This document shows, one piece after another, positions 32,938-38,226 of a DNA stretch of 64,000 nt (positions within the stretch are counted from its first letter, which is position 1; each line of letters opens with the position of its first letter). A model generated the notes under the pieces. It saw nothing but the letters and a program-made list of their open reading frames with translations, made no database searches and was not told where the DNA came from. The stretch spans positions 5,322 to 69,321 of the forward strand of contig CAVTEG010000012.1 in the NCBI GenBank assembly GCA_963733815.1. The letters are read 5' to 3'. Source of the DNA: an uncultured Acidobacteriota bacterium (GTDB lineage Bacteria > Acidobacteriota > Thermoanaerobaculia > UBA5066 > Gp7-AA6). Made by a program: the position numbers and the translations under genes.

Positions 32938-35218
32938 CTGAAGCGGATCGCTTCCGCGATCTTCGGCGGCCTGCTCCTCGCGGCCGCGGCCTTCGCCGCC
33001 TCGCCGGCGGCTTCGCACGACGATCTCGACGCCCAGCTCGAGCGGATCTTCGGGATAAAGGAATACACCGCCAAAAAGTTCGGGCCGTTCCAGTGGGCCG
33101 ACGGCGGCAAGGCTTTCACGACCGTCGAGCCCTCCGCGCCCGAAGACGCGAAGACCGTCCGAGATCTCGTCCGCTACGACTCCGTGACGGGCGAGCGTCG
33201 GGTGCTCGTCCCCTCGGCACGGCTCGTCCCTTCGGCCGGCAAGCCCCCGCTCGCCGATCGAGGACTACGCCGTCTCCGACGACGGGAAGCGTCTTCTGAT
33301 CTTCACCAACACCCGGAAGTCTGGCGCCGCAACACCCGCGGCGATTACTGGGTGCTCGACCTCGCCCCGGGGAACCTCCGAAAGCTCGGCGGCGAGGCGC
33401 CCGAGTCCACGCTGATGTTCGCCAAGTTCTCGCCGGACGGCGACGCGCGTCGCCTACGTGCAGGCCAACGACCTCTACGTCGAGGACGTCGGCGACGGCG
33501 CCGGTCACGCGGCTCACGGCCGACGGCTCGGCCACGAGCATCAACGGCACGTCCGACTGGGTCTACGAGGAGGAGTTCGGTCTGCGCGACGGCGTTCCGC
33601 TGGAGCCCGGACGGGAAGCGGATCGCGTACTGGCACTTCGACGTCACAGGCGTCGGCACGTTCCATCTCATCAACGACACCGACTCGCTCTATCCCGTCG
33701 CTCACGCCGATTCCGTACCCGAAGGCGGGCACCACCAACTCCGCCGTCGACGATCGGGGTCGTGCCCGGCGACGGCGGCGCCGTGCGGCTGGCTCGAGCT
33801 TCCCGGCGACCCGCGCAACACTACCTGCCGCGGATGGAGTGGGCGGACTCCCGCCGAGCTCGTCCTCCAGCAGCTGAACCGCCTCCAGAACACCGACGAC
33901 GTATGCTGGCGGACGCCGACGACGGCCGGACGAAGCGGATGTTCCGCGACGAGGACAGCGCCTGGGTCGACGTCGTGGACGCCTGGCAGTGGCTGCCGGG
34001 AGGCAAGGAGCTCCTCTGGGTCAGCGAGCGCGACGGCTGGCGGCACGTCTGGGCGCGTCTCGACAGGACGGCGCGCTCCGGATCCTCACCCGGGTGCCTT
34101 CGACATCGATCACGGTCGACGGCCGTCGACGCGAAGACGGGGACGCTGTACTTCATCGCCTCTCCCGGAGACGCCACGCAGCGCTACCTCTACCGCGCGC
34201 GGCTCGACGGCAAGGGCGCGCCCGAGCGCGTCACGCCGCCGAACCCGCCGGGACGCACGCCTACAAGATCTCGCCCGACGGGCGCTGGGCGCATCCACAC
34301 CTTCTCCACGGTCGACCGTCCGCCGGTCGACTCGATCTGGTGCGGCTTCCCGTCGCACCAGACGCGTTCGCGTCCTCGAGGACAACCGGCGAGCTCGCGG
34401 CGAAGGCCGCGGCGGCGTTCGTCGCCGGCCGACGGAGTTCTTCCGGTGGACATCGGCGGCGGCGTGACGCTGGACGGCTGGATGATCAAGCCGAGGGACT
34501 TCGATCCTTCGAAGAAGTATCCGCTGCTGATGTACGTCTACGGCGAGCCCGCCGGGCCGACGGTCGAACGACGCTGGGGCGGCGACCGGCCGCTCTTCCA
34601 CCGGGTGCTCGCCGACGCCGGGCTACGTCGTGGCGAGCGTGGACAACCGGGGCACCCCGTCCCCGAAGGGGCGGGCCTGGCGAAGGTCGATCTACGGCGA
34701 TCGATCGGCGTGCTCGCGACGCGCGGACCAGGCCGCCGCCGTCGGGCGCTTGCTCGCGACGCATCCGTACATCGATCCCGCGCGCGTGGCGATCTGGGGC
34801 TGGAGCGGCGGCGGCTCGATGACGCTGAACCTGATGTTCCGCTATCCCGACGTCTACAAGGTCGGCATGGCCGTCGCGCCGGTGCCGGACCAGCGGCTCT
34901 ACGACACGATCTACCAGGAGCGCTACATGGGGCTGCCCGCAGGAGAACGCCGAGGGCTACCGGAACGGCTCGCCGATCAACTTCGCGGAGGGACTGAAGG
35001 GACAGCTGCTCGTCGTCCACGGCTCGGGCGACGACAACGTGCACTACCAGGGCACCGAGCGGCTGGTGAACCGGCTGGTCGCGCTGGGCAAGCCGTTCGA
35101 CTTCATGGTCTACCCCAACCGCACGCATGCGATCAAAGAGGGCGAAGGGACCTCGCTCCACCTTCACGAGCTTCTCGCGCGCTATCTGACGACGAACCTT
35201 CCGGCGGGACCGAGATAA
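32938..35218 (+). CDS. S9B dipeptidyl peptidase IV family protein, many frameshifts
   Basis: DWVYEEE, YPKAG, GWSGGG, DDNVH, RTH across frames. Signal peptide begins at CTG 32938. Confidence 0.85.
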
Positions 35219-35275: not shown

Positions 35276-35974
35276 TCACCTCAATTCCACTCTCCCCTTC
35301 GGGCACTCGATCACGGCGATGAGCGCGGGCCTGGGGCCCTGCGTTACGGCAAGATCGATTCCAACCGCCTCGAGGATGCGCCGGATCTCGGGTGCGTCCG
35401 GGTGTTCCGCGCGCAAGCCGACGAGCTTTGCTCCCTTCGCCGCGCTCGCCGCCGGATGCGGGGATGTCCCCCAATCGATGAAGAAAGGAACGATGCCGTC
35501 GCCTGGCGTCTTCGTCGCGTCCGTCACGCGCCACGACAGAACCACGCCGTCGGGCCTCTTGCGTCCACCCGGCTTCACCTCTCCCAGGTGTACGCCCTGG
35601 CTCGCGGCGTGGCGGACCAGCGCGTCCAAGTCGGAGGTGTTGGCGGCCCAGGCCACCAGGCGCGGAGCCGCGAGGGAGTCCAGCCCGAAGGACCGCGGCT
35701 CCTTCGGCGGCGGCTGATCCGGATCCGGGCCGACGATCTCGAGATAGCTCGTCGGCCCGAGCGCGACGAGGGCGTTTCGCGTGCCCCTCCCCGGGTGCTG
35801 CCCGCCCGGCGTCGCCCGAACCCCGAGGAGCTTCTCGATCTCCGCCACGCCGCGCGAAAGGTCGGGCGTCGCGTAAGCGAGGTGATCGACGCGCGCGAGA
35901 ACGTCGCCGGAGCGCGGCGTCGGAGACGGGGCGGGCATCAGAATGGCCGCCAGTGCGAATCCGAGCGAGAGCAT
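35276..35974 (-). CDS. VOC/glyoxalase-like family protein
   Basis: DHL, GGQHPGRGTRN, YLEIV, PFFIDW; hydrophobic N-terminus. Confidence 0.85.
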   Translation of the reverse strand: MLSLGFALAAILMPAPSPTPRSGDVLARVDHLAYATPDLSRGVAEIEKLLGVRATPGGQHPGRGTRNALVALGPTSYLEIVGPDPDQPPPKEPRSFGLDSLAAPRLVAWAANTSDLDALVRHAASQGVHLGEVKPGGRKRPDGVVLSWRVTDATKTPGDGIVPFFIDWGTSPHPAASAAKGAKLVGLRAEHPDAPEIRRILEAVGIDLAVTQGPRPALIAVIECPKGRVELR

Positions 35975-35996: not shown

Positions 35997-36830
35997 TCAC
36001 CGCAGAGCGGCTTCCAGCGCCGCGGCCGCGTCGGTCCGCGCGTCACGGTACTTCACGATCACGGGAGTCTGGAGAGAGAGCCCCCACTCGGCCCCCTTCC
36101 CGTCGCGGATCGCGCGGGACCCGGGTACGACGACCGCTCTCTCGGGTATCTCGAGCGGGCGGCCTTCGGCGCTCCGGTAGATCTCTCCGCGCACTACGTC
36201 GTAAACCGGCGTGGCCCGCGTCAGGACCACGCCCGCCGCGAGGACCGCGCCTGCGCGCACGACGGCTCCCTCGTAGATCCCGGAGTCTCCGCCGACGAAG
36301 ACATCGTTCTCCACGATCACCGGCAGCTCGCCCGCCGGCTCCAGGATCCCCCCGATCTGCGCGCCGGCGGAGACGTGGACGCGGCGGCCCACCTGGGCGC
36401 ACGAGCCCACCAGCACGTGCGAGTCCACGAGAGTTCCGCTGTCCACGTACGCTCCGACGTTGACGAACACCGGCGGCATGATCGTCACGCCGGGAGCGAC
36501 GTAAGCGCCTGCGCGCACGGAGGTCCCGCCGGGAACCACGCGCACGCCCGACGCCCGTGTGAAGGATGCCGTCGGAAGCGTGTCCTTGTCGAAAAAACGA
36601 AGAGGACCGGCCGGCGGAAACTCCGCGAGCACGCCGACGCGAAACGCGAGCAGGATGCCGCGCTTGACCCATGGATTTGCCTCCCAGCGTCCGTTGCGGC
36701 GCTCGGCCGCGCGGACGCGGCCCGACGCGAGGGCCGCGAGCAGCTCCGCCACCGCCGCGCGCGCCTCGGCGGCCGGCGGGGCCGCCGAGGCCGCGAGCTC
36801 CTCGAGAAGCCCGGCGAGCGAGGCGCTCAA
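35997..36830 (-). CDS. dapD: 2,3,4,5-tetrahydropyridine-2,6-dicarboxylate N-succinyltransferase
   Basis: WVKRGILL, FFDK, VNVGAYVD, VGSCAQ, IGGILEP, VVVPGSR. Confidence 0.93.
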   Translation of the reverse strand: MSASLAGLLEELAASAAPPAAEARAAVAELLAALASGRVRAAERRNGRWEANPWVKRGILLAFRVGVLAEFPPAGPLRFFDKDTLPTASFTRASGVRVVPGGTSVRAGAYVAPGVTIMPPVFVNVGAYVDSGTLVDSHVLVGSCAQVGRRVHVSAGAQIGGILEPAGELPVIVENDVFVGGDSGIYEGAVVRAGAVLAAGVVLTRATPVYDVVRGEIYRSAEGRPLEIPERAVVVPGSRAIRDGKGAEWGLSLQTPVIVKYRDARTDAAAALEAALR

Positions 36831-37750
36831 CGCGCCGACGTTCCCTTCTTCGGAAGAAGCCGGTAGCCGGCGAGCATCTTCTCGATCCGCTTGCGCGTCT
36901 CGTCCCGCACCGGAACCAGCGGAAGCCGCAGGGTCTCCGGAGACTTCTTCATCAAGGCGAGCGCGCACTTCACGGGTCCCGGCGAGGGCTCCCAGTGGTT
37001 CATCTCCATCAGAGGCTCGTACTTGCGCTGGAGCGTGAGCGCCTTCGCGCGGTCGTTTTCGAGCGCCGCGCGCACGAGCTCGGCCATCTCCTTTGGAATC
37101 TGGTTGGCGACGATCGAGATCACGCCGCGCGCGCCGAGTGCGATCAGGGCGAGCGCGGTCGCGTCGTCGCCCGAGAAGACGGCGAAGTCCTCGGGGAGCG
37201 TGGCCATCAGCTTCGCGATCTTGCCGAAGTCCGCGGAGGCTTCGAGCAGGCCGGCCACGTTCGGGATCTCGGCGAGACGCTGGATCGTCTCGACCGTCAG
37301 GTCGATCCCGGTCCGCGCGGGAAAGTTGGACACCATCATCCGCAGGTCCGTCGCCTCGGCGATCGCCGAGAAATGCCTCAACAAACCCTCCGGGCTCGGC
37401 GTGTTGAACATGGGCGTGACCGAGAGAATGCCGTCGGCGCCGACCGAGGCCGCGTCTTTCGCCCAGAAGACGGCGCGCGCCGTGTGATTGCCGCCGGCTC
37501 CGGCGATCACCGGGACGCGGCCGCCGGCCGCGTGGACCACGGCGGCCGTGACGGCCTTGCGCTCGTCGCGCGACAACGTCGAGGACTCGCCGGTTGTGCC
37601 GCACGTCACCAGGAAGTCGACGCCCTGTGAGATTTGCCACTCCACCAGCGCCGCGAGCGGCCCGAACGCGATGCGCCCCCGGTCGTCAAACGGCGTGACG
37701 AGCGCCGTGCCGCAGCCCTTTGCGTCGAATGTCTTCCGGGTGCCTTTCAC
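36827..37750 (-). CDS. DapA/DHDPS-fold protein with catalytic Lys and Tyr residues substituted
   Basis: TALVTPF, GTTGE, SGDD, RLPL conserved, but PMFN, VSNFP and GLLEAS at the catalytic sites. GGAGG RBS. Confidence 0.85.
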   Translation of the reverse strand: MKGTRKTFDAKGCGTALVTPFDDRGRIAFGPLAALVEWQISQGVDFLVTCGTTGESSTLSRDERKAVTAAVVHAAGGRVPVIAGAGGNHTARAVFWAKDAASVGADGILSVTPMFNTPSPEGLLRHFSAIAEATDLRMMVSNFPARTGIDLTVETIQRLAEIPNVAGLLEASADFGKIAKLMATLPEDFAVFSGDDATALALIALGARGVISIVANQIPKEMAELVRAALENDRAKALTLQRKYEPLMEMNHWEPSPGPVKCALALMKKSPETLRLPLVPVRDETRKRIEKMLAGYRLLPKKGTSAR

Positions 37751-37821
37751 GAGTCCTCCATCCGGCGATTGGTGTGGGACACCGTATAATCTTTTCGTAC
37801 CTTCGAACAAACGAGAAGCAC

Positions 37822-38226
37822 ATGAGCTCTGCACCTGCAGGTCCGCGCTGCCCGCGCTGCCACCGGCCCCTGGCCGCCTGGCGGATGAACCATTGTGTGT
37901 ACTGCGGTGAAGCGATTCCCGCGGAGCTGAAGGCGGGCTTCGAGGAGCCGGAGGCTCTGAAGTTTGTGGAGCGTCCGGGGCTGCCCGCGGACGTCCACCG
38001 TCAGCTCGAGATGATGAAGGTCGTTCCCATGGAGGGCCGCAAGCCCGCCAAGAACGTCGTCAAGATCGCCGGCTTCGCCTCGCTTCCCATCTTCGCCGTG
38101 CTGATCTATCTGACCTACACGCTGATGAAGCAGCTCTCCGCCACCGCCGGCGCGCTGATCCTGGTGGTGGGCGCCGGAGTCCTCGGCTACCTCGCCTACA
38201 CCTTCGTCAAAGCGTCGAAGAAGTAG
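37822..38226 (+). CDS. Zinc-ribbon (CPRC..CVYC) protein with two C-terminal TMs
   Basis: Translation; TATAAT box upstream near 37775. Confidence 0.65.
   Translation: MSSAPAGPRCPRCHRPLAAWRMNHCVYCGEAIPAELKAGFEEPEALKFVERPGLPADVHRQLEMMKVVPMEGRKPAKNVVKIAGFASLPIFAVLIYLTYTLMKQLSATAGALILVVGAGVLGYLAYTFVKASKK

Follow-up and report, generated by a model that had tools for sequence, protein, structure and literature searches.

Dihydrodipicolinate synthase (DHDPS), the product of dapA and the first enzyme on the way to lysine and to the diaminopimelate of the cell wall, is a textbook Schiff-base enzyme and a target of antibiotics and herbicides, and its lysine and its tyrosine triad are treated as obligatory. 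N-acetylneuraminate lyase, 2-keto-3-deoxygluconate (KDG) aldolase and 5-dehydro-4-deoxyglucarate dehydratase belong to the same fold family (PF00701) and, to our knowledge, every described member of the family uses a lysine on strand 6. Here we analyze a gene of this family that lacks it, encoding the protein P0001, which adjoins dapD in a stretch of 64,000 nucleotides (the window; contig CAVTEG010000012.1) from the genome of an uncultured bacterium of the Acidobacteriota (G000); we call this gene and its clade DapA2. One study lists T44, Y106, Y107, Y133, R138, K161, G186 and I203 as the active-site residues of DHDPS and states that enzymes mutated in the triad or at K161 are severely impaired in activity (PMC3369909). 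Our favored reading, to which we give a probability of roughly 0.6, is that P0001 is a DHDPS-derived pseudoenzyme kept by purifying selection for a non-aldolase role, and not for the synthesis of 4-hydroxy-tetrahydrodipicolinate (HTPA). In a literature search we met with no account of a naturally Lys-less DHDPS or of a pseudoenzyme derived from DHDPS, and a search on Thermoanaerobaculia and diaminopimelate returned nothing related.

Results

P0001 is read from an uninterrupted frame of 307 codons to which homologues align from residue 1, and the features that the sequence-only reading of the window had named (an intact open reading frame, a GGAGG ribosome-binding site and a 4-nt overlap with dapD) are all there (Table 1). 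The protein scores 284 bits against PF00701, the Pfam DHDPS model, and 288.9 bits against TIGR00674, the NCBIfam dapA equivalog, above its cut-off of 206.15; it falls far under the cut-offs of the models for other PF00701 enzymes. phmmer searches of PDB chains returned DHDPS entries at E-values of 1e-69 to 1e-64, with 36-43% identity to the solved enzymes and no gaps across the sites of interest, query residues 13-293 corresponding to residues 5-286 of E. coli 1dhp (the E. coli number, used below unless a query residue is named, is the query number minus 8). On this alignment all the substitutions that had been read by eye are borne out: K161L, Y133S, Y107F, Y106M, N248S (codon TCG) and arginine (CGC) at both H56 and E84. 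The Schiff-base position thus holds leucine, and from the proton-relay triad T44/Y107/Y133 the threonine stays while both tyrosines are replaced. Arg138 at the pocket entrance is present, G186 and I203 are retained too, and so are the GTTGES, SGDD and RLPL motifs. Two items of this list, the changes at N248 and Y106, tell less than they had seemed to: serine is also found at position 248 in Neisseria meningitidis DHDPS (3flu) and Y106M (Met114) is common to all members of the DapA2 clade, canonical ones included.

Despite the lost catalytic residues, the DHDPS fold of P0001 is predicted to be preserved. AlphaFold2, given an alignment of 36 rows, produced a model with a mean per-residue confidence (pLDDT) of 91.9 and a predicted template-modelling score (pTM) of 0.90, which consists of eight strand-helix units followed by a C-terminal helical part, a (beta/alpha)8 barrel. 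The top ranks of a Foldseek search with this model hold only DHDPS structures (query TM-score, TMq, 0.90-0.93; root-mean-square deviation 1.3-1.6 A), the E. coli K161A mutant 3i7q among them.

The loss of lysine and tyrosines is, to judge from independent sequences, neither chance nor an assembly artefact. Identical codons stand at all these sites in two other species-level genomes (L012, which is a contig of G096, and L003), whose proteins are 93% and 92% identical to P0001; CTC at the K161 position is also read in L052 (G096) and L003. A 6457-base contig (X3, record 19; contigs of 4 runs) covers positions 36700-37850 at ~95% identity, and none of its 41 listed differences (45 further ones are unlisted) falls on the codons of K161, Y133 or Y106/Y107. 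The difference between AAG and CTC at all three bases is explained by single steps, AAG to CAG to CTG to CTC, as relatives carry CAG (Gln), CTG (Leu) and, as another neighbor, ATG (Met) at this position; the codon path to Y133G is likewise stepwise (TAC to GAC to GGC). Among homologues at large the state is uncommon: when 1.84 billion proteins clustered at 50% identity were searched, 145 of the 150 best-ranking cluster representatives were alignable at all sites, and of these 141 have K161, 141 have Y133 and 143 have Y107. The four representatives without K161 are two fragments from the DapA2 clade (P0124, P0130) and two unrelated proteins (P0172, P0263). The latter, from other lineages and 38-39% identical to P0001, have Asp and Ala in place of K161 and Ser and Glu in place of Y133, so that lysine loss may recur in other lineages.

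Relatives came from a survey of 101 genomes of the order, comprising families f1, f2 and f3 with the window's genus designated g1; they are metagenome-assembled genomes (MAGs), and the trees are quick searches. Ratios of nonsynonymous to synonymous substitution (dN/dS) were estimated by the Nei-Gojobori method and their absolute values are rough, because third-position GC content is ~0.9 and dS is compressed and saturating. The three genomes that share the Leu/Ser/Phe state gave 0.083, 0.091 and 0.113 (3 pairs, dS 0.27-0.44, no indels), and the adjacent dapD, intact at 277 amino acids in the window, L052 and L003, gave 0.163-0.177 over the same genome pairs. Medians were 0.129 for K161Q genes (15 pairs), 0.156 for Y133G genes (45 pairs), 0.083 for K161A paralogues of f3 (6 pairs) and 0.204 for the canonical DapA2 of f1 (125 pairs). 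The DapA2 frame is intact in 20/20 fetched members of the genus and in 120 metagenomic homologues of 72-95% identity. By these estimates selection on the catalytically changed DapA2 appears not to be relaxed, and its constraint looks equal to or stronger than that on the working neighbor dapD. Neutral decay and the canonical mechanism are both excluded for P0001. The preference of the sequence-only reading for a pseudoenzyme over decay is upheld by model confidence, structural match and dN/dS alike, and the shared K-to-L, Y-to-S state under dN/dS below 1 that it had proposed to look for exists in the two other species-level genomes.

That reading had also spoken of a targeted loss of the chemistry, and here the relatives tell otherwise. 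Canonical DapA (state T-T-Y-Y-Y-R-K, in a dapB-dapA-dapD cluster) occurs in family f2 and in genus g10 of f3; it is 40-45% identical to P0001, and the branch between it and DapA2 is long and has full support. Family f1 has no DapA-type gene other than DapA2, which in genera g2-g5, g7 and g8 adjoins dapD and has, in all but G090 (Y107F/Y133H), the canonical catalytic residues. The window's genus departs from this: 19 of 20 fetched genomes carry at least one catalytic-residue change, the states being canonical in 1 (G025, with dapB and dapD adjacent), Y133G in 10, K161Q in 4, Y133S/K161L in 2, and T45N/Y133D, Y107F/Y133D and the window-like state (G096) in 1 each. The gene was not fetched from G098, where it is partial, or from G007; G007 and G014 enter the tallies only, and no residue claim rests on either. 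The partial L014 and L079 were excluded from the trees; the clade analyses omit L015, whose frames are broken, and L016, which comes from another phylum and shows 38% identity. With catalytic columns included, IQ-TREE places G025 and L009, both canonical, basally in the genus and the others in a clade of 23 (approximate likelihood-ratio support, SH-aLRT, 89), within which the 11 rows without K161 cluster (SH-aLRT 90). With those columns removed, a FastTree of 186 rows requires at least 3 changes between lysine and another residue at 161, at least 7 changes at Y133, at least 9 at Y107 and at least 3 at T44. All told, 67 of 178 DapA2 sequences are canonical and 111 changed, 50 of them without K161, and Arg138 is invariant in 178/178. 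On these trees and tallies, the loss in P0001 is one state in a genus-wide mosaic of changes at the catalytic site, which accompanies the loss of dapB and dapD, and not a single targeted event. Two irregular MAGs may be mentioned: in one, the DapA2 gene and dapD both have broken frames (L015, 6001-7756), and another has two K161Q copies, each on a contig of its own (L007, L008).

Constraint within the protein is unevenly spread. When column entropies of 43 non-redundant changed sequences were compared with those of 32 canonical ones, the largest gains were at E. coli positions 135, 244, 133, 161, 245, 247, 205, 41, 107, 187 and 101, which make up the pocket shell and include positions not used for defining the groups; R138 ranks 172/289, and 64 columns remain invariant. 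The Lys-less clade to which P0001 belongs (17 sequences, 73-95% identical, intact frames) varies at query residues 169 (M8 L7 N1 R1), 141 (S12 Y3 A1 T1), 143 (V6 F5 A3 S2 L1) and 115 (F13 Y4), and keeps T44, T45, R138, G186 and D188 in 17/17. Its sister clades look different. In the Y133G clade the pocket is fixed (query residues G141, E143 and K169 in 51/51), and K161, T44, T45 and Y107 are likewise retained in 51/51; the K161Q clade keeps T44, T45 and Y133 in 17/17 and Y107 in 15/17. The Y133G proteins also carry V135E (motif GNEPGRT; L034, L037, L039, L044-L049, L053 and 41 metagenomic proteins), and neither dapB nor dapD was found in the 10 sampled genomes of that clade; from its sequence it may have become a Schiff-base enzyme remodelled for a different substrate. 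Family f3 has a DapA2 paralogue with K161A or K161V plus T44P/T45E (L082, L080, L083 and L087 in g10; L084 and L085 in g11), which adjoins purD and a short-chain dehydrogenase gene and has a dN/dS of 0.06-0.12. In g10 this Lys-less DapA2 coexists with the canonical dapB-dapA-dapD cluster, an arrangement resembling that of a prozyme.

The genome around P0001 was then read for the rest of the pathway. G000 (4.3 Mb, 15 contigs, 84.84% complete) has only two PF00701 matches, P0001 and L002. L002 was considered as a real DapA and rejected: it scores 174.7 bits, under the cut-off of 206.15, has alanine at R138 and Ser-Leu at T44-T45, and sits after an FAD/2Fe-2S oxidoreductase gene. It may work in hydroxyproline breakdown. 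The suggestion that P0001 might be the partner of a true DapA therefore finds no such DapA in G000. The absence of dapB from the locus, noted earlier, holds and extends to G000 as a whole (85% complete), where neither TIGR00036 nor PF05173 finds one; lysC, also reported as missing from the locus, was not searched for. Neither a canonical dapA nor a dapB turned up in relatives with near-complete genomes either, G010 (98% complete, 2 contigs) being one of them. Across the genus sample, a DapA2 gene is present in 21/21 genomes and lysA in 21/21, with dapB in 6/21 and dapD in 8/21 (plus G000). Within f1, dapB and dapD matches accompany canonical DapA2 in 20/20 fetched genomes, and where DapA2 is changed (n=25, including G000) dapB is found in 10 and dapD in 8, a pattern among kin genomes that is no statistical test. 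Genera g6 and g11 have dapD in 0/4 and 0/3 genomes and both retain DapA2-type genes. A role tied to DapD, as first proposed for P0001, cannot then be general.

Other entries to diaminopimelate were searched for in G000, G010, G068, G038 and G025, all five of which have dapF. In these genomes DapL reached at best 103.6 bits with TIGR03542 (cut-off 364.7) and 222.4 with TIGR03540 (cut-off 593.25), and Ddh and LysX stayed under their cut-offs (best 23.4 and 54.9 bits). In most of the genus, as far as such profile searches of sequence can tell, no known route leads from aspartate semialdehyde on to diaminopimelate, although the last two steps to lysine are kept. G000 itself is an intermediate state in which dapB is gone and dapD is intact and coupled. 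K161Q goes together with a dapB over cut-off in 4/4 genomes of the genus sample and in 1/2 further genomes (G002 yes, G004 no). The family has two kinds of dapB, a divergent one in the dap operon (~70+30 bits with TIGR00036) and a canonical-scoring one elsewhere (142-176 bits), whose surroundings are uninformative; the loci are L094 (G060:C2:1155934-1156695), L095 and L096, to be compared with G025:C2:2125683-2126243. Where genomes of g1 and g6 with changed DapA2 have any dapB, it is of the canonical-scoring kind only. The lysA gene of G000 (G000:C4:4554-5760) matches its model in two pieces (5-254 and 269-416) in separate open frames, which suggests a frame break or an assembly indel.

Around the locus, genus g1 has the order S9 peptidase, dapD where present, DapA2, a divergent gene for a small zinc-ribbon membrane protein and then DUF72, a synteny of the lineage that does not extend to the rest of the DapA2 clade. 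Adjacency of dapA and dapD is the ancestral operon order and occurs with canonical DapA too, and the TTGA overlap is maintained in genomes that keep both DapA2 and dapD (P0002 scores 282 bits against NF008808, cut-off 204). The 134-amino-acid zinc-ribbon protein begins with a CxxC...CxxC motif and carries a membrane segment at its C-terminus; neither Pfam nor NCBIfam models match it, and synteny of its gene extends over g1, g6 and part of g2. A glyoxalase-like gene (PF13468) directly downstream of dapD is found at that place only in the window, L052 and L003, the genomes with the window's state. Aligned to a relative's intact 769-amino-acid orthologue, the S9 (DPP-IV-like) peptidase gene passes through frames 3, 1, 2 and 1, which makes it either a pseudogene or a product of assembly indel errors. 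An Rfam scan of the whole window gave no match, and in particular no lysine riboswitch.

Table 1. Positions of DapA2, its sites of interest and the surrounding genes in the window
Feature	Position	Strand	Remarks
DapA-family ORF, P0001, DapA2	36827-37750	minus	307 aa; DHDPS fold, catalytic residues lost
DapA2 start codon	37748-37750	minus	GTG
GGAGG ribosome-binding site	37755-37759	minus	4 nt ahead of GTG start
dapD, P0002	35997-36830	minus	277 aa; start TTG 36828-36830; NF008808
Overlap of DapA2 and dapD	36827-36830	minus	TTGA; DapA2 stop TGA (36827-36829) with dapD start TTG
Schiff-base Lys161 position, residue 169	37244-37246	minus	CTC, Leu
Tyr133 position, residue 141	37328-37330	minus	TCC, Ser
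Tyr107 position, residue 115	37406-37408	minus	TTC, Phe
Tyr106 position, residue 114	37409-37411	minus	ATG, Met
Thr44, Thr45 (GTTGES motif)	37592-37597	minus	ACA ACC, retained
Arg138, residue 146	37313-37315	minus	CGG, retained
Zinc-ribbon membrane protein, 134 aa	37822-38226	plus	divergent from DapA2
Glyoxalase-like gene	35276-35974	minus	PF13468
S9 (DPP-IV-like) peptidase gene	33019-35212	plus	split over frames

Discussion

If P0001 is indeed a pseudoenzyme, its barrel would fold as that of DapA does and would be unable to run the Schiff-base aldol condensation of pyruvate and aspartate semialdehyde. Its role would then be non-catalytic, perhaps the binding of a small carboxylate or dicarboxylate ligand, or that of a structural or regulatory subunit. 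In DHDPS, T44, T45, R138, G186 and D188 hold the two carboxylates of substrate and product; that these five are kept while the pocket around them drifts suggests that a carboxylate or dicarboxylate is bound. Relatives keep DapA2 after both dapB and dapD have gone, so DapD cannot be a requirement for the role. Moreover, the constraint on dead versions equals that on canonical ones and f3 has a dead paralogue beside a live DapA, so that the second role may be old and common to the whole DapA2 clade. The lineage would no longer make diaminopimelate from aspartate semialdehyde by any known route; diaminopimelate may possibly be taken up, and the dapF and lysA products could still use it.

Several observations weigh against this reading. 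An intact, selected and coupled dapD is odd without tetrahydrodipicolinate and hints at an unseen supply route, and the persistence of lysA and dapF in the relatives searched means that diaminopimelate needs a source. A canonical dapA or dapB could sit in the missing part of G000. The fixed machinery of the Y133G and K161Q sister clades suggests that some chemistry survives there. Finally, the neighborhoods revealed no gene partner conserved across the clade.

Some of these points leave room for accounts in which P0001 still catalyzes a reaction. It may have acquired a new activity on the old scaffold, one that needs no Schiff base and works through residues other than the lost ones. We consider this unlikely, all the more as the pocket positions of the query's clade have settled on no new residue set, no new gene partner or pathway context has appeared, and our literature search found no family member that works without the lysine; it would nevertheless suit the strong constraint on P0001, the invariant residues T44, T45, R138, G186, D188, N216 and K261, and others (such as H89, R64, R78, K177) that are clade-invariant and unlike canonical DapA of the neighboring family, and the fixed remodelled pocket of the Y133G sister clade does look like altered catalysis, not loss. 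Alternatively, P0001 could still be an HTPA synthase, slow, lysine-independent and substrate-assisted, that feeds DapD through an unrecognized reductase replacing DapB. It is the sole DapA-type gene of G000, its coupled dapD is intact and under selection, and dapF and lysA are present with no DapL, Ddh or LysX over cut-off, so no other source of diaminopimelate is visible; K161Q relatives have dapB (4/4 in the genus sample, 1/2 further), and the E. coli K161A and K161R mutants have been made and solved (3i7q and relatives). These mutants are said, in work attributed to Soares da Costa in 2010, to retain a small residual activity. P0001, however, has lost K161, Y133 and Y107 all together, the pocket drifts inside its own clade, neither kind of dapB was found in G000 or in 15/21 genus members, and the gene persists where dapD is gone too, which makes continued HTPA synthesis improbable in our eyes. 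There is only a slim chance for the broader idea that the Lys-less and Tyr-less DapA2 of the genus start diaminopimelate synthesis independently of a Schiff base and together with a reductase unrelated to DapB. If true, the first two steps of the diaminopimelate/lysine pathway would take a new form, and the retention of dapD (here), dapF and lysA would make sense although no DapB, DapL, Ddh or aminoadipate route is visible.

The 4-nt overlap itself would be accounted for if the dead DapA bound or regulated DapD specifically. The overlap is kept where both genes stay and both are under purifying selection, but the adjacency is merely ancestral operon order, also seen with canonical DapA, and the DapA-like gene is found in 21/21 genomes against 8/21 for dapD, with dapD in 0/4 of g6 and 0/3 of g11, so that we hold such a specific partnership to be very unlikely; a predicted DapA2-DapD complex scored 0.00 against a mark of 0.32, which counts for neither side. 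What, then, of a relic that decays neutrally and happens not to be broken yet, or a frame held open only for coupled translation of dapD? Many relatives have lost dapB and dapD, catalytic positions vary freely, and the neighboring S9 peptidase gene of the same assembly has broken frames. Against this stand a dN/dS of 0.08-0.11, the absence of indels up to a dS of 0.44, intact frames in 20/20 genus members and 120 metagenomic homologues, selection on the amino-acid sequence, which coupling alone would not need, and the presence of the gene where dapD is absent. The relic account is already largely refuted, and we give it hardly any credence.

On the favored, pseudoenzyme reading, a core biosynthetic enzyme would have a second, hidden function in this clade, a non-catalytic one, and free-living Acidobacteriota may depend on outside diaminopimelate. 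Whatever its role, a natural orthologue without the residues held to be obligatory is the only DapA-type gene of its genome and is more constrained than the adjacent dapD, and throughout a soil genus catalytic residues appear to have been lost repeatedly and independently alongside dapB and dapD. Source annotations name the DapA2 proteins "4-hydroxy-tetrahydrodipicolinate synthase", meaning that metabolic reconstructions would wrongly credit these genomes with the DHDPS step.

Dead paralogues that serve a live enzyme are known, HisZ being an example. The trypanosomatid deoxyhypusine synthase prozyme (PMC3663545) resembles DapA2: in both, selection maintains the homologue of an enzyme after the loss of catalytic residues. 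The prozyme pattern fits f3, where a Lys-less K161A DapA2 stands beside a canonical DapA; P0001 differs from it, as no live DapA was found in G000 for it to serve. With DapA itself (TIGR00674, EC 4.3.3.7; 1dhp, 3flu), P0001 has in common the equivalog score, the fold, T44/T45/R138/G186/I203 and the ancestral place upstream of dapD. It differs in lacking Lys161 and two of the three triad residues, in a genome where no dapB was found, and in a pocket shell that varies freely within its clade. The E. coli K161A and K161R enzymes (3i7q, 3i7r, 3i7s) show that the barrel still folds without the lysine. These are laboratory single mutants, whereas the loss in P0001 is natural, comes with Y133S and Y107F, and is fixed across species under purifying selection.

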